Origin: an uncultured Candidatus Melainabacteria bacterium
GTDB lineage: Bacteria; Cyanobacteriota; Vampirovibrionia; Gastranaerophilales; Gastranaerophilaceae
Assembly: GCA_937891325.1 (NCBI GenBank)
Contig: CALAFU010000170.1
Coordinates: forward strand, 1-49,213
Direction of reading: 5' to 3'
DNA length: 49,213 nucleotides
The notes below the pieces were generated by a model. The model was not told where the DNA came from. It searched no databases and worked only from the letters and a program-made list of their open reading frames with translations. Below are positions 2,917-32,828 of the stretch, piece by piece. The position numbers were made by a program, and so were the translations under genes. Numbering within the stretch: position 1 is the stretch's first letter; every line of letters begins with the position of its first letter.

Positions 2917-3303
2917 ATGAAGTATAGCTATTTAGCATGTACAAACGTAAACGATTGTATAAATAAGTTTACTTTTTTAAAAACATCAAAAAAGATTAAT
3001 AGCAAAGCTATTGTAAAAACAGTCAATGAGTTTATGAATCTATGTGCATTAGAGTTACAACAGAATAATGTAATTGCAATTCATGGTTATTACACTAAAA
3101 AGTCACATGTTACTTTTCACCCAATAGATAATACAAAAATTTATTCTGAAAGACCTATGACAGTTATGGTTGGTTGGAAAACTTTGCGTGATAAATTCAA
3201 AAGAATATTTGGTAAAGATGTAGAAATATCCCATAAAAAACATTGTTTATATATCATTGTTCAAAATACTAATATTGGAAGTAGTTTATTAAAAGACATT
3301 TAA
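2917..3303 (+). CDS. small protein, C-terminal IG-x3-L-x2-I tail family
   Basis: Ends NTNIGSSLLKDI-stop, the tail shared with the 38.6-49.2 kb array. Confidence 0.7.
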   Translation: MKYSYLACTNVNDCINKFTFLKTSKKINSKAIVKTVNEFMNLCALELQQNNVIAIHGYYTKKSHVTFHPIDNTKIYSERPMTVMVGWKTLRDKFKRIFGKDVEISHKKHCLYIIVQNTNIGSSLLKDI

Positions 3304-3320
3304 ATAGCGTTGAGGTTTTA

Positions 3321-3527
3321 ATGAATTGGAAAGATGCTAAAGACCTATTTATGGTGGCACTTATTGTGTTGGTTGCAAGTTGTTTTACATCTCAGTGCGC
3401 TTACGAACTTGGTAAAGATTATGCTAAAACTGAAGTTGCCAAAGAACTGTGCTCAAAAACTGAATACGATTTCTGTGTAAAAGTCCCACAGAGATCTATA
3501 TATACTCTTAAAAATGATATTGACTAA
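3321..3527 (+). CDS. small membrane-anchored protein (68 aa)
   Basis: N-terminal hydrophobic segment LFMVALIVLVASCF; GAGG RBS. Confidence 0.6.
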   Translation: MNWKDAKDLFMVALIVLVASCFTSQCAYELGKDYAKTEVAKELCSKTEYDFCVKVPQRSIYTLKNDID

Positions 3528-3546
3528 ATGAAAGAAAACAAACAAT

Positions 3547-3663
3547 ATGCTACAAAACCATGAAGAATTAAAAGAAGACTTCGATGAAGTTCCTGTAAAT
3601 GAAAATCAAAATTGTTATCCAGATGAAGATTGTTTGGAAATCTTAAAGAAATATGAAGGTTGA
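3547..3663 (+). CDS. possible small acidic protein (38 aa)
   Basis: ORF MLQNHEELKEDFDEVPVNENQNCYPDEDCLEILKKYEG found by hand; weak RBS. Confidence 0.3.
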   Translation: MLQNHEELKEDFDEVPVNENQNCYPDEDCLEILKKYEG

Positions 3664-3749
3664 ATGTCGTGTAAATATAACTTCTTAATTTAAAATGGTT
3701 GTTTAAAAATAATAATCTTTTGTTTTGTGTAATAAAATATGAATCAAAA

Positions 3750-3786
3750 AAAGACCTCTGTTCCTAATAGTTCAGAGGTCTTTGTC
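3750..3786 (+). terminator. rho-independent terminator
   Basis: 11-bp stem AAAGACCTCTG (3750-3760) pairs with CAGAGGTCTTT (3773-3783), 12-nt loop, T-rich 3' side; closes the left gene block. Confidence 0.75.
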
Positions 3787-4035
3787 GTAATTGTGTAAAT
3801 TTCTGTGTATTGTATTGTTGTATTTTTATGTATGGAAATGTGTAATGTTGCATATTAATCCTATTCCTGATATATAATATTGTTTAGTTGTTTTTTCTGA
3901 ATTAAGCTATCTTGTGTCATTATTTATTAGTATTTTAATTTATTAAATTGTTTTATCCTTTGTTTATATGACATGTGAAAAGATGATCAATATAGAAGAT
4001 ATGTGTATGTTATATGATGGTGTCGGTGTATTAGT

Positions 4036-4075
4036 TGTAATGTTGTATGATGTAATGTAATCTAATGTAATGTGG
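4036..4075. repeat. TGTAAT-rich short repeat cluster
   Basis: TGTAAT occurs at 4036, 4051, 4056 and 4066 within a G/T-rich low-complexity tract. Confidence 0.5.
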
Positions 4076-4360
4076 TATTAAAGAAATGAGAAAAGTGTTA
4101 AGGTCTGCGAAAGTTTGTAATGATATAACTGAAACAATAAAAGTTTTTGTATTGTTATAAAAAGAATAATTGTGGTGTGACTGTTCGTTGAAAGATTTAT
4201 TTAGGTGAAAATAGATAATAGTTCATATGAACTAAACTATCTTGAATTGATAATCGTTTGGTTAGACGGTTTGTTGTGAATGTAAGATATATATATAATG
4301 AAAATATAGTTCATGCCTAGATAAAAAAGGTTTAGTCACTCATAAGAAGTTGGTTATATA

Positions 4361-4950
4361 ATGAAAAATAAGTACATAGGTGTTACAAAAATATCAGAAG
4401 TAAAATTTAAACTGTTGATAAATGTTTTTGCAAAGAATTCACAACATTACAAATAGTAGAATTATTATATATAAATCGCAATATAGCCAATCTGTGGATA
4501 AACAAAATAAGAGACAGTATGTTTTTGTTGGTAGAATAATAAAAATACATATTGTGTTCAAATAAATGAAACATACCTTGCAAAATCAATAGAACCCCTT
4601 TTATAAATACCTTTCCCTATATGAAGAAATTATTGTTTTCTGTATATTCAATGAACACAAAAAAGCGTATGCTTTAACCATTGATAAATCTAGTAAAATT
4701 AAGACTCTTCCGATAATTAGAGATTGTTGTGCTAAAATGCAACCATCTTTACAATTGACACAGCGTTATATAATGGTTTAACAAAATTAAAATGATAACA
4801 GCACCCAGTTAATCTCATTTAAAAAAGTTCCCAAAACAATATGATGCTATGCGCTTTACCTCTAATAAATTTGAAGGTTCTGGAAGTTGAATGAAAGCTA
4901 GTTTATGTAAATTTAAAGATGTCAATTGAGATAGTTTACACCATATATCA
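4361..4950 (+). pseudogene. decayed IS1595 (ISXO2-like) family transposase remnant
   Basis: Hand translation across frames gives MKNKYIGVTKISEVKFKLLINVFAK / TTLQIVELLYINRNIANLWINKIRDSM / NKFEGSGS-stop-MKASLCKFKDVN. These resemble the N-terminal HTH and C-terminal INGIEgFWs.aKrrl.kf.G blocks of ISXO2-like transposases. Many stops and frameshifts; about 590 bp against about 900 bp for an intact gene. Confidence 0.55.
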
Positions 4951-5085
4951 CTGTACCTGTGTCTGTGTCTGTTTGGGGATTTATCATATACGTGATGATA
5001 CTTATCTGTTATTATTAGCTTGTTTTAGAACGAATATTCTTTAATCATTTAGATATGCTACCAAAATACGAGGTATTGTGCGTGT

Positions 5086-30920: not shown

Positions 30921-30950
30921 TTGACTTTTTATAATTATATATGATAATTA
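30921..30950 (+). promoter_or_regulatory. possible sigma70-type promoter
   Basis: TTGACT (30921-30926), 18-nt spacer, TGaTAATTA (30942-30950). Confidence 0.4.
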
Positions 30951-30981
30951 TTTAATTATAGTTATCATAGGAGGTGTTGGT

Positions 30982-31341
30982 ATGTCTAAAAGAATAATCA
31001 ATTGGAAAAAGGTTCGTAGAGAAGTGATTGATAAACTTTACGGCATACAGACAGATGACGGCAGTTATGAGTATCAAGGTGTTTGTGTAGATTCAGAAAC
31101 TTTAGAGTTTCATAATTGTGATGACAACAGGGTTATGAAGTATTATCAATTTTATAGTACTTTTAAGAATTTAAACAAACATGACGTATATGGCGCTGGA
31201 TTATTTATACCTAAAGAGATTATTGACAATGAGGAGTTGTCTATAGTTCCTGTATCACATTTTGAACTTCAAGCCATTAACAATGGTGTATTTCTGTTAA
31301 AGAAACGCAGCATAGGTGATGTTGTTCTTCATGAGATTTAA
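30982..31341 (+). CDS. small protein, tail family (119 aa)
   Basis: AGGAGG RBS; ends KKRSIGDVVLHEI-stop. Confidence 0.65.
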   Translation: MSKRIINWKKVRREVIDKLYGIQTDDGSYEYQGVCVDSETLEFHNCDDNRVMKYYQFYSTFKNLNKHDVYGAGLFIPKEIIDNEELSIVPVSHFELQAINNGVFLLKKRSIGDVVLHEI

Positions 31342-31358
31342 GAAGGAGGAGAAGAAAA

Positions 31359-31736
31359 ATGTTCATTTCTAATGTACCTTTAAAGGAAAATAAACGCTTC
31401 AATAGATACATTAACAACCTTGATAAAGTGTTTAGTGGGTTGAAAGTCATTGACAAGAATGATGACAAACTGAAGTACCTTTTTGTTCAATATAATGCTG
31501 ATGAAGCTTTTGCACATAACATTGTATATCATAACCCTTCACATTATGAATTCAAATGTATTTTCATGCGTGAGTATGGTGATTGTAAATGTTATAATGT
31601 GTTGATTGAAATTGGTCTACTGAATCGCATTAGAAAAGTAAAGAAGAAATCTTTACAAATCATTGTAGACCAATCAACGGGAAATTTGATAGCTGAAGAA
31701 AAAGCTTTAGGTCAATTTGTATTGGAGTCATTATGA
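31359..31736 (+). CDS. small protein, tail family (125 aa)
   Basis: AAGGAGGAG RBS; ends EEKALGQFVLESL-stop. Confidence 0.65.
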   Translation: MFISNVPLKENKRFNRYINNLDKVFSGLKVIDKNDDKLKYLFVQYNADEAFAHNIVYHNPSHYEFKCIFMREYGDCKCYNVLIEIGLLNRIRKVKKKSLQIIVDQSTGNLIAEEKALGQFVLESL

Positions 31737-32083
31737 TGAGTACAGAAGTAAATGTCAAGACAACAAAGTTCCAAAAGTTACGTGAAGCTTTAATTGGAAA
31801 ACAGGTGTTAGATACTATTGTTCAAGATGTATCTGAAAGATGTTATTTTCAAGAGTTTTATGAAATCAATAAAACATATCTTGAATTGGAAATCTGTCCT
31901 AAACATCGTAACAATTGGGAAATGTATGGTTGGCATGTATACATGGACAAAGAACTTTACAAACGACCTAAATTGTTCCCGTTGTTGGAATTTGTTGTTT
32001 GTGATGATCCGTTAAATCCAAACGGAAAGTGGTTGGAAATTGTCGTGCCTAATATAGGAGAAACCACCTTAAATAAAATTTAG
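31733..32083 (+). CDS. small protein, tail family (116 aa)
   Basis: ATGA overlap; ends VVPNIGETTLNKI-stop. Confidence 0.65.
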   Translation: MMSTEVNVKTTKFQKLREALIGKQVLDTIVQDVSERCYFQEFYEINKTYLELEICPKHRNNWEMYGWHVYMDKELYKRPKLFPLLEFVVCDDPLNPNGKWLEIVVPNIGETTLNKI

Positions 32084-32084
32084 G

Positions 32085-32112
32085 TTGACAATTTCTTTTG
32101 TCATGATATAGT
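32085..32112 (+). promoter_or_regulatory. sigma70-type promoter with extended -10
   Basis: TTGACA (32085-32090), 16-nt spacer, TGaTATAGT (32104-32112). Confidence 0.65.
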
Positions 32113-32145
32113 AACTTTAACAAACCTAATGAAGGAGTAAGAGAT

Positions 32146-32481
32146 ATGACTGAACAGAAAACCTATACCACATCTGAATTGATGTTTTCGGTTGTTGACA
32201 ATTTGGAAAAACAGATTAGCACAATCAATCTGATCATTGGTGTCCTTAAGGAAACAGCTGAAGAAATGAAATCTAATGAAGAAGCAAGTGTGTGCGGTGT
32301 CAAACGTGAACAGTTTGAAGAGATTGCTAAACTGATTCACATGAATAATAAAATGCGTAATGCATTGAATAACATTGCACATGGGGAAATGACAGTTAAA
32401 CCGTATGGCACTGTCTATATGGGACGAGAGGAAGAAGTCACCTTGCAACAGTATGCTGAAGAAGCATTAAAGGAAGATTGA
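32146..32481 (+). CDS. hypothetical protein (111 aa)
   Basis: AAGGAG RBS; the antisense ORF 32101..32448 is rejected. Confidence 0.65.
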   Translation: MTEQKTYTTSELMFSVVDNLEKQISTINLIIGVLKETAEEMKSNEEASVCGVKREQFEEIAKLIHMNNKMRNALNNIAHGEMTVKPYGTVYMGREEEVTLQQYAEEALKED

Positions 32482-32483
32482 AC

Positions 32484-32828
32484 ATGAAGAATTGGGTCGG
32501 GTATAAAGGTCGATTGAAAAGTCTTTTATTGGCACTGAATGAAATCATATATAGGCAATATGAGATTAACCTTTATGATATCGATAATATTATCCGATCC
32601 AATAAACATTTCACGGACCAGTTGAAGAACAAAGAAACTATTGTAATGGTTTTGATTGATTTCAAGGATAAAAACGGTTTGTTTATGTCACAATGGTTTG
32701 ACATTGATAAATATCTTTTAAGAAAGTATAAAACCTTTACTGCTGGAATGATTGATGTGCTATTTACAGAAGAAACCAATACAATCACTGAAAAGCGTAT
32801 TGGTGAACAAACGTTATGTGGCATCTGA
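32484..32828 (+). CDS. small protein, tail family (114 aa)
   Basis: Start at ATG 32484; ends TEKRIGEQTLCGI-stop. Confidence 0.65.
   Translation: MKNWVGYKGRLKSLLLALNEIIYRQYEINLYDIDNIIRSNKHFTDQLKNKETIVMVLIDFKDKNGLFMSQWFDIDKYLLRKYKTFTAGMIDVLFTEETNTITEKRIGEQTLCGI

Follow-up and report, generated by a model that had tools for sequence, protein, structure and literature searches.

Short peptides at the extreme C-terminus can bring otherwise unrelated proteins to one docking partner, as do the beta-clamp motif QL[SD]LF and the gp45-binding tails of T4 gp43, gp33 and gp55. A C-terminal tail resembling these in position and brevity, with the nine-residue consensus hydrophobic-G-x-x-hydrophobic-L-x-x-hydrophobic-stop, is described here from positions 1 to 49,213 of contig CALAFU010000170.1 (the window, i.e. 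the whole stretch of DNA analysed), which is part of an uncultured jumbo phage of the gut, of ~313 kb. Hub-binding tails sit on a handful of replication and transcription proteins, whereas the tail of the window ends ~40% of its open reading frames (ORFs), in what is probably an early region. In the poxvirus ankyrin/PRANC (F-box-like) families, large sets of virus-specific paralogues vary in their N-terminal parts and are coupled to one host machine by a conserved module at the C-terminus, the PRANC domain, which measures ~50 aa and has Skp1 as its partner; the window element differs in being as short as 9-12 residues and in standing on non-homologous proteins. The C-terminal signals of Dot/Icm effectors and of type I secretion, and degrons such as ssrA LAA and the ClpX C-motifs, are likewise position-dependent and found on many unrelated proteins, but their consensus is loosely defined or different, and nothing in the window points to export or degradation. 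No description of such a tail system was found in the literature searched. A MoxR AAA+/vWA-metallopeptidase pair (chaperone-cochaperone-peptidase) of jumbo phages was described by Iyer et al. 2021, who proposed a role in virion assembly and left tails unmentioned (PMC7824862). The same pair is encoded in the window at 11825-14522, directly upstream of tail-bearing genes.

Occurrence of the tail

The tail is real, is selected at the protein level, is confined to the extreme C-terminus and stands on proteins unrelated by sequence. The pattern G-x3-[LIMF]-x2-[ILVFM]-stop is matched by 38 plus-strand ORFs of at least 50 aa, and by 39 of the 103 greedy plus-strand ORFs of at least 40 aa, one of them spurious (40 aa, 36475-36597); two minus-strand genes and one variant with N for G bear the tail in addition. 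Inside proteins the same pattern occurs at 35 of 13,228 positions (0.26%), against 37% at C-termini, while composition predicts 0.35%, in agreement with the first-pass annotation of this DNA, which had put the random expectation at well under 1%. The binomial P is ~1e-72 overall and ~1e-34 for the 20 of 74 ORFs that match outside the paralogue array described below. Two of 309 ORFs on the non-coding strand match, and both are real genes.

The result does not depend on the pattern chosen. A position matrix trained solely on 93 tails of related phages places 37 of 95 window C-termini above the 99.9th percentile of internal 10-mers, with a bimodal distribution of scores (37 C-termini at 5.8 or higher, that of the ORF at 30224 at 2.2, the remainder at -5.4 or lower), and none of 480 in T4; a matrix check of this kind against a control phage had been suggested in the first-pass annotation. 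The possibility, also raised there, that control phages carry such endings in comparable proportion is not borne out, the pattern matching 0 of 119 ORFs in T4 (69 kb), 0 of 29 in Cronobacter S13 and 1 of 84 in Vibrio VS2 (250 kb). When no motif is assumed, the last 8 residues are common to at least three other ORFs in 39 of 91 ORFs; with the 8-residue window shifted 12 or 20 residues upstream this holds for 0-1 ORFs, and at N-termini for none.

Among 131 tails matching the pattern, G stands at position -8 in all 131 by construction, L at -4, and I, L or V at -1 in 125. The ends read [KNE][ESTND][ILV], and the residue two before the last is variable (K, N, E, D, S, T). Carriers and non-carriers do not differ in charge or hydrophobicity. 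Several known motifs were compared and rejected. A clamp-binding motif (QL[SD]LF or QxxLxxFF) would require a conserved Q, which the tail with its G at -8, L at -4 and I/L/V at -1 does not have; ssrA-like or ClpX degrons (LAA, RRKKAI-like) end differently; and the T4-type capsid-targeting sequence is N-terminal and cut at L/I-x-E, whereas the motif is C-terminal and the N-termini share nothing. Compared with a PDZ ligand, the tail has the I/L/V preference at its last residue, with the variable residue two before it, and residues are added after the motif in one distant relative (L017, see below).

Conservation in related loci

Relatives were chosen as a graded series of rIIA homologues and the syntenic loci were fetched, giving six related loci (L007-L012; rIIA identities, from the nearest to the farthest and not in the order of the labels, 75, 55, 47, 42, 38 and 34%) and two more distant loci (L016 and L017). 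Vibrio phage phiKT1024 (L020) was compared through its zincin-VWA homologue. The phage isolate collection held no close match to rIIA at the DNA level or to the rIIB-like protein, and a close rIIA relative was not found in IMG/VR. From the nearest to the farthest of the six loci the tail ends 14 of 38, 15 of 38, 8 of 36, 21 of 40, 15 of 43 and 21 of 41 ORFs.

Orthologues in the six loci retain the tail, including the forms listed as reduced in the first-pass annotation. The rIIB-like orthologues end in GDGLLDCF, GDSLLDCF, GNDMLGCI, GDDLLDCF, GDDLLSFV, GFDWFEGL and GTDFLVCL, and those of 25466 in DGDKLLKEV, DGEELLKEI, DGEKALKEV, DGLHLLEEV and others; the orthologues of 21416, 17054 and 30224 likewise retain it. 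Over 45 orthologue pairs substitutions number 0 of 45 at G(-8), 1 of 45 at L(-4) and 3 of 45 at position -5, against 20.8% elsewhere. The last nine residues exceed the mean conservation of the protein in six of seven carrier families, the seventh (16445) being affected by an alignment gap. No other 9-mer of the 25466 family is as conserved as the tail, and G135, L139 and E141 are invariant in 28 homologues. The tail is under purifying selection throughout the clade.

The more distant loci use other forms of the ending and have no G-type tails. In L016 the form [ST]-x3-[LIMV]-x2-[ILV]-stop ends 16 of 29 ORFs (P ~3e-28), and in L017 the form [TS]-[ED]-x-h-h-x-x-[LI] (h, hydrophobic) followed by one or two extra residues ends 9 of 36.

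The array and its paralogue family

Many carriers lie in a paralogue array in the last quarter of the window, which comprises the following features.

38628..39883, plus strand: first array block of four paralogues (38628-38951, 38956-39249, 39282-39572, 39581-39883)
41448-41765 and 41781-42185, plus strand: array paralogues
42540..42917, minus strand: carrier of 125 aa inside the array, ending DAGITCLENI, missed by the first-pass annotation
42996..43389, plus strand: split paralogue of 47042-47377, the 3' piece (43141-43389) retaining DIGETTLNKL
43386..43787, minus strand: carrier of 133 aa inside the array, ending DIGTVCLENI, also missed
43893..49172, plus strand: main array of 14 consecutive paralogues, running on past the window end

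The four paralogues of the first block all end [DE][IV]G-x3-L-x2-[IV]. Starts in the main array are at 43893, 44382, 44735, 45096, 45469, 45803, 46198, 46548, 47042, 47379, 47976, 48441 and 48807, and in 48441-48794 N replaces G (DLNEECLESI). The overlapping ORFs 42996-43178 and 43141-43389 both match 47042-47377, and 42996-43389 is probably a frameshifted array member; the homologue of 48807 is likewise split in some strains (L005 14426-14793). A strong hairpin with a 16-bp stem and a T run (39989-40028) lies between the first block and the convergent minus-strand gene 40041-40751 and is probably a bidirectional terminator.

The array paralogues, roughly 100-160 aa long, are mutually just 14-25% identical and yet demonstrably one family, aligning over ~60 C-terminal residues as strand, D-K-D-type helix, strand, strand, G and helix. 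Against a profile built from the array only, 25897, 30574, 30982, 31359 and 31733 align in a common register over 46-50 columns (E 3.5e-6 to 2.4e-3). With the tails cut the register is unchanged, E being 0.0017-0.05 for four of these five and 0.22 for 30574, and carriers make up seven of the top nine non-array matches. Profile comparison thus unites about 25 carriers (20 array ORFs and these five), some two thirds of all those in the window, in a single paralogue family that diverges fast.

Protein searches confine the array family to one phage lineage, with 11 matches in a search of 5.8 billion proteins and 16 in an exhaustive search of 1.84 billion; every match stops at the last residue of the protein. 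An iterative search with hidden Markov models drifted and remained marginal. An identical copy of an array protein is found on contig CACUWO010000001.1 (313,409 bp) of GCA_902725595.1 and on many metagenome contigs. Relatives have arrays of their own that expanded independently, as seen in L009 (21 of 40 ORFs) and L012 (21 of 41). The continuation of the array, as seen in L001, contains on the minus strand at 16358-17227, ~1.5 kb past the window end, a gene for a 289-aa ankyrin-repeat protein, followed by further tail-bearing genes and then by an RNA-ligase/kinase-phosphatase gene. The ankyrin-repeat protein is a possible candidate for a protein-binding partner.

Carriers outside the array

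All 19 ORFs that the first-pass annotation had listed outside the array are present and end as quoted, and differences are limited to alternative start codons (25897/25903, 32478/32484, 17054/17066 and 25439/25466). They are given below, all on the plus strand, together with one gene that had been missed.

2917..3303, plus strand: carrier, 128 aa, NIGSSLLKDI, matrix score 14.1
7801..7971, plus strand: doubtful carrier, 56 aa, FGACFINEL, matrix score -5.4
8686..9387, plus strand: carrier, 233 aa, KGERLLREI, matrix score 14.5
14578..15117, plus strand: carrier, 179 aa, NVGEFLMEML, helix before the tail, tail kept in 5 of 5 orthologues
15129..15818, plus strand: tail-like AFGEYLLDL followed by the extension MPDEPSS, missed by the first-pass annotation
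15831..16436, plus strand: carrier, 201 aa, EIGNLTFSSI, 16 columns aligned with the array profile
16445..17050, plus strand: carrier, 201 aa, TVGSDCLFEI, tail kept in 4 of 5 orthologues
17054..17515, plus strand: carrier, 153 aa (start probably 17066), DGQGLLDTI, helix before the tail
21416..21682, plus strand: carrier, 88 aa, KGERTLQSI, tail kept in 4 of 4 orthologues
24786..25448, plus strand: truncated rIIB-like protein (weak match), 220 aa, SGDGLLDCF, tail kept in 7 of 7 orthologues
25466..25894, plus strand: carrier, 142 aa (longest ORF from 25439), DGDKLLKEV, alpha/beta fold in the model
25897..26262, plus strand: carrier, 121 aa, EIGEAVLNSL, array family, 46 columns
26275..26658, plus strand: carrier, 127 aa, STGKQTLVEI, 15-17 columns with the array profile
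29133..29450, plus strand: carrier, 105 aa, PIGDLCLEGV, 15 columns comprising the last strand and the tail only
30224..30562, plus strand: carrier, 112 aa, GDGAVVLSTM, matrix score 2.2, conserved in orthologues
30574..30912, plus strand: carrier, 112 aa, NVGQKALKDL, array family, 46 columns, E 0.0024
30982..31341, plus strand: carrier, 119 aa, SIGDVVLHEI, array family, 46 columns, E 3.4e-5
31359..31736, plus strand: carrier, 125 aa, ALGQFVLESL, array family, 46 columns, E 8e-5
31733..32083, plus strand: carrier, 116 aa, NIGETTLNKI, array family, 50 columns, E 3.5e-6
32478..32828, plus strand: carrier, 116 aa, RIGEQTLCGI, 19 columns aligned

Of the 19, only the ORF at 7801 looks like a chance match, which it probably is, whereas 30224, weak by the matrix, has its tail retained in both orthologues. 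Searches of 20 carriers against Pfam and PHROGs gave no matches save a weak rIIB match for 24786; 25466 too was without a match.

Profile comparisons covered the families with orthologue sets, which 2917 and 8686 do not have. After removal of the last 10 residues, profile-profile comparison found no link with the array, or among themselves, for the families 14578, 15831, 16445, 17054, 21416, 24786, 25466 and 26275. With the tails included, at most 15 columns or none align for 14578, 17054, 21416, 24786 and 25466 (12 columns between the 25466 family and the array), and 16-17 for 15831 and 26275; the alignments of 16445 and 30224 miss the tail altogether. Membership of the array family was not recovered for 14578, 16445, 17054, 21416, 24786, 25466 or 30224, the power of this comparison being limited by shallow alignments. 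Pairwise BLAST with transitive clustering did not merge the families once the tails were removed. Ahead of the tail stands a long helix in the 14578, 15831, 16445, 17054 and 25466 families and a strand in the array, 21416 and rIIB-like proteins. In being short, fixed in position, present on otherwise dissimilar proteins and conserved among orthologues above its flanks, the tail resembles a short linear motif.

At least five carriers (14578, 17054, 21416, the rIIB-like protein and 25466) are, as far as profile comparison can tell, orthologue families with only the last ~12 residues in common. Of the two readings offered in the first-pass annotation, that of a single diversified superfamily suits the ~25 carriers aligned over 46-50 columns and is not supported for these five families; that of a portable motif is upheld in so far as the tail alone is common to the five and rIIB homologues exist without it, while the routing of the carriers to a common partner is a hypothesis.

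Some neighbouring families have endings that resemble the tail. The 15129 family, with orthologues in L007-L012, can be traced furthest among the families of the carrier block (to L016 and L017). Its members end in a tail-like helix followed by MPDEPSS, LPEYPEYVY, LPDYPDYC or IPVNYPDYLY, i.e. a proline/acidic/aromatic extension of LP(E/D)YP(E/D)Y-like type, which resembles the YPEEFI tails of phiKT1024. The 29447-30034 family has acidic ends of TEDVLFDDDI type, and one L011 orthologue ends GMIVLHNV; the 21704-22396 family ends DKDVIFGAIA, with L010 and L011 paralogues ending GDGIIEMIY and DGEVVERIL. Both families are conserved, and their ends may represent tails that have degenerated or been extended. 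Three tandem paralogues of 169-174 aa on the minus strand in L015 (4747-6310, ~4-5 kb upstream of the window start) end NYIDVLNEI, SYTDVLDEI and NYNDVLNTI, which are similar to the tail and lack the G.

The rIIB-like carrier

The protein encoded at 24786-25448 matches PHROG 609 (T4 rIIB, Pfam PF26926) with E 6e-5, and its gene follows rIIA. Its L011 orthologue matches the rIIB of L016 with E 5e-9, and ~165 N-terminal and central residues align with the rIIB of T4, L016 and L017. The full-length proteins of the distant relatives, which have Pfam Phage_T4_rIIB matches on record, are encoded as follows.

L016 12238-13347: full-length rIIB, 369 aa
L017 12260-13441: full-length rIIB, 393 aa

The window protein has 220 aa against 312-393 aa, and the region SNYFDCHSNTFDN...GLHVCS is absent; Pfam gave no match at E 0.1, and the full-length rIIB architecture was not recovered. 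The rIIB proteins of T4, L016 and L017 are all without the tail, whereas those of the window's clade extend ~25 residues past the end point of T4 rIIB and finish in it. The tail was therefore rejected as a feature of rIIB as such, and at least one carrier is thus a different protein that gained the tail. The C-terminal extension of the full-length L016 and L017 rIIB has homologues in the N-termini of 27760-28635, 33989-34789 and L009 18421-18897, so that rIIB has seemingly been split or shuffled in the window's clade.

Structure models

G, S and T are classical helix N-cap residues, and since it is these that occupy position -8 in the various lineages, and positions -9 and -4 fit a hydrophobic staple, the tail may be read as a capped two-turn amphipathic helix. 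The helix N-cap and hydrophobic-staple motif, reportedly treated by Richardson & Richardson in 1988, by Munoz, Blanco & Serrano in 1995 and by Aurora & Rose in 1998, has the form h-[G/S/T/N]-x-x-x-h, which fits positions -9, -8 and -4; it occurs anywhere in proteins and leaves the strict C-terminal placement and the 40% recurrence unexplained.

An AlphaFold model of 25466-25894, made with 28 homologues, has a mean predicted local distance difference test score (pLDDT) of 85.5 and a predicted template modelling score (pTM) of 0.77, and its fold comprises three helices at the N-terminus, a sheet of six strands and a helix (121-139) at the C-terminus. The pLDDT stays near 93 as far as residue 130, falls to 63 over residues 131-140 and reaches 48 in the final two; the drop coincides exactly with the tail, the one part of the model with low confidence. 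This is suggestive of a conserved but poorly packed element, as in a binding motif. The model of an array member, made with 20 paralogues, has low confidence (pLDDT 52 overall, 74-79 over the last 40 residues) and places a strand at 93-97, a strand at 103-107 and a helix at 108-115, which is the tail. On whether the tail is an appendage, a point that the first-pass annotation had proposed to examine by structure prediction, the two models differ: the low confidence over the 25466 tail agrees with it, and the packing of the array-member tail behind a hairpin, in a poor model, does not. Foldseek returned nothing significant for the 25466 model in the PDB (best E 0.4) or BFVD (best E 0.027, TM 0.34); for the array model it gave no significant structural neighbour, which is uninformative at that confidence.

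Neighbouring genes and the MoxR/zincin-VWA pair

Other genes recognized in the window are listed here. No tRNA and no Rfam family was found in the window.

11825..13168, plus strand: MoxR-type AAA+ ATPase (AAA_5, E 7.7e-14), tail absent
13230..14522, plus strand: zincin (HEAMH) fused to VWA (DUF2201_N and DUF2201), metal-ion-dependent adhesion site (MIDAS) intact (DTSGS), tail absent
18926-20071: EcoRI-like (adenine) methylase
20169-21335: GmrSD-HNH nuclease
22405-24708: rIIA
27186-27737: resolvase/invertase-like protein

The methylase of the methylase and GmrSD-HNH pair (18926-21335) is split in L007 (6329-7541). In L010 (15251-17386) the EcoRI-like methylase is interrupted, with a faint LAGLIDADG match, which suggests a mobile insertion. 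An AT-rich stretch of ~2.6 kb (3530-6200) is without a convincing ORF, tRNA or Rfam match; besides a 34-nt inverted repeat (5453-5532), short repeats are scattered through it.

Immediately after the MoxR and zincin-VWA genes come five genes in a row that end in the tail, except that 15129 has a tail-like sequence instead, and this order is kept in every relative whose flank reaches the pair (L007-L012 and L016). Homologues of the zincin-VWA protein in the isolate collection are restricted to Bacillus phages AR9/PBS1 and Vibrio phages of the phiKT1024 type, and in both groups clusters of hypothetical genes with a common C-terminal ending stand beside the homologue, as in the window. Six AR9 ORFs right after the AAA and zincin-vWA genes end YEAMNILNEL, YEAEELLEQL, YEAINIMESL, YEALSILDTI, LEAIELLENL and HSAVDILESL, i.e. 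E-A-x-x-[IL]-[LM]-x-x-[LI], with the h-L-x-x-h finish of the window tail and A at -8. An annotated early promoter precedes the gene pair itself in the AR9 record. The AR9 proteins sharing this ending (g030-g036) lie behind annotated early promoters and differ from the window carriers in being ordinary paralogues over ~200 aa. Around the zincin-VWA gene of phiKT1024, 17 of 25 ORFs end [PAC]-E-x-[FLMV]-[ILV], for example YPEEFI (P ~6e-56). These ORFs are small (loci 19204-28381 and 39947-40201), and their similarity is limited to the tail as in the window, although the motif is another one; phiKT1024 also has a MoxR ATPase gene, at a different place in its genome. The tail families of AR9 and phiKT1024 showed no detectable homology to those of the window. 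The AR9 transcription paper does not mention g028-g036, and neither the shared ending of g030-g036 nor that of phiKT1024 is described in the literature searched.

A tentative and rather doubtful proposal is that the tail would be a recognition tag for the phage's own MoxR AAA+/zincin-VWA machine. The VWA domain, which has an intact MIDAS site, would capture the tail, with a conserved Glu or the terminal carboxylate as the point of contact. Dozens of different proteins, probably early ones, would then be remodelled, assembled or destroyed at a given signal by the ATPase and the HEAMH peptidase, whose motif the first-pass annotation had noted as the only protease-like one in the window. The zincin-VWA protein as receptor and the MoxR ATPase as partner machinery are candidates by inference only. 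The gene neighbourhoods of three independent lineages lend the proposal indirect support, as a correlation rather than a demonstration. If true, it would mean a phage-encoded, tag-directed chaperone/protease system.

Explanations for the tail

Chance, or the compositional bias of an AT-rich genome, has a practically negligible probability. The pattern is loose, and the matches at 7801-7971 and in the 40-aa ORF 36475-36597 look accidental, but it is found in 0.26% of internal positions against 37% of C-termini, both matches among the 309 non-coding-strand ORFs are real genes, the AT-rich T4 is without matches and orthologues conserve the tail. Somewhat less remote, and still scarcely credible, is a nucleotide signal at gene ends (promoter, ribosome site, terminator or recombination junction) that is merely read as peptide. 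The motif always abuts the stop codon in tightly packed genes, and a few intergenic TTGACA-type promoter-like sites follow carriers, as such a signal might lead one to expect. The codons, however, are fixed at positions 1 and 2 for G(-8), L(-4) and the last residue and free at position 3 (GGT/GGA/GGG/GGC; TTA/TTG/CTT/CTG), so that third positions are almost uninformative; each of the three stop codons occurs after the tail, no sequence 3' of the stop is conserved, promoter-like and terminator-like sites occur at the counts expected from shuffled sequence, and minus-strand genes bear the tail too. A DNA-level signal was rejected on these grounds. A generic cap at the protein end, for which selection would have acted separately in every protein, for instance against a host tail-specific or C-degron protease, and which would need no shared partner, is improbable. 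It has in its favour that the motif reads as a textbook capped helix with a staple and an N-cap G/S/T, that it is tied to the last residues of the protein and that non-polar bacterial C-termini are generally known as degradation signals; yet it leaves unexplained why the AAA ATPase, methylase, GmrSD-HNH and rIIA of the region are without the tail and why so specific a sequence is needed rather than any stable end, and L017 tolerates one or two residues after the motif.

On balance the probable explanation is that the tail is a portable, clade-specific C-terminal module with a shared docking function. Its consensus, h-[G; S/T in distant relatives]-[E/D/x]-x-h-L-x-x-h-COOH, would form a short capped amphipathic helix in which the small residue at -8 is the N-cap and residues -9 and -4 make the hydrophobic staple, and this terminal helix would dock many different, probably early, proteins to one common receptor or to each other. 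The module would occur in two settings, a diversifying paralogue family and several conserved orthologue families with nothing else detectable in common, among them the truncated rIIB, whose T4-type homologues are tailless, and the 142-aa alpha/beta protein of 25466, from whose fold the helix would project. A common binding partner is inferred, and the lineage-specific dialects of the tail would make a phage-encoded or lineage-specific receptor more likely than a universal host hub. The serious rival, though on the whole an unlikely one, is that all carriers are one superfamily diverged beyond recognition. One small ancestral protein would have been duplicated in tandem, fused and diversified very rapidly, leaving the C-terminal helix as the last core element of the fold and its sole recognizable part, and no common partner would be needed. 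Such a history would fit array paralogues that are 14-25% identical and still one family, the five non-array genes that join them at 46-50 columns, the seven carriers among the top nine tail-stripped matches, the clustered and mostly tandem arrangement of the carriers, the independent expansions in L009 (21/40) and L012 (21/41), and the ordinary paralogue family of AR9 with its similar ending. It is harder to reconcile with a pre-tail element that is a strand in some carriers and a long helix in others, with the mere 12 columns shared by the 25466 family and the array, with an rIIB-like N-terminal domain homologous to the tail-less rIIB of T4, L016 and L017, and with carrier sizes from 82 to 233 aa. 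Several observations nonetheless weigh against a docking module. Most carriers (~25) do form one family, and extreme sequence divergence could hide a common ancestry of the remainder; the orthologue alignments are shallow (effective number of sequences 2-3), and the negative hhalign results are therefore weak evidence. At -1 the favoured residue is V in the L009 array and L in that of L012, going with the paralogue array and not with the orthologue group, so that part of the dialect reflects recent duplication rather than co-evolution with a partner, and orthology of any carrier between G-type and S/T-type genomes could not be established. Low pLDDT is common at chain ends, and the best-predicted part of the array-member model is the tail itself, packed after a beta-hairpin, which fits a structural role.

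Significance

Jumbo-phage genomes are rich in small genes of unknown function, and here one nine-residue ending ties together ~40% of the genes in a 49-kb region, as it does genes throughout a clade of gut phages. Should the tail be only the last helix of one exploding family, it would show how far paralogues can diverge while retaining a single capped helix. Although the source phage has not been cultured, AR9/PBS1 and phiKT1024 have, and with their MoxR and zincin-VWA homologues they offer tractable parallels. If the tail is a docking tag, it would represent a new way for phages to organize their host-takeover proteome, and identification of the protein that binds it would give dozens of orphan proteins a shared pathway at once.

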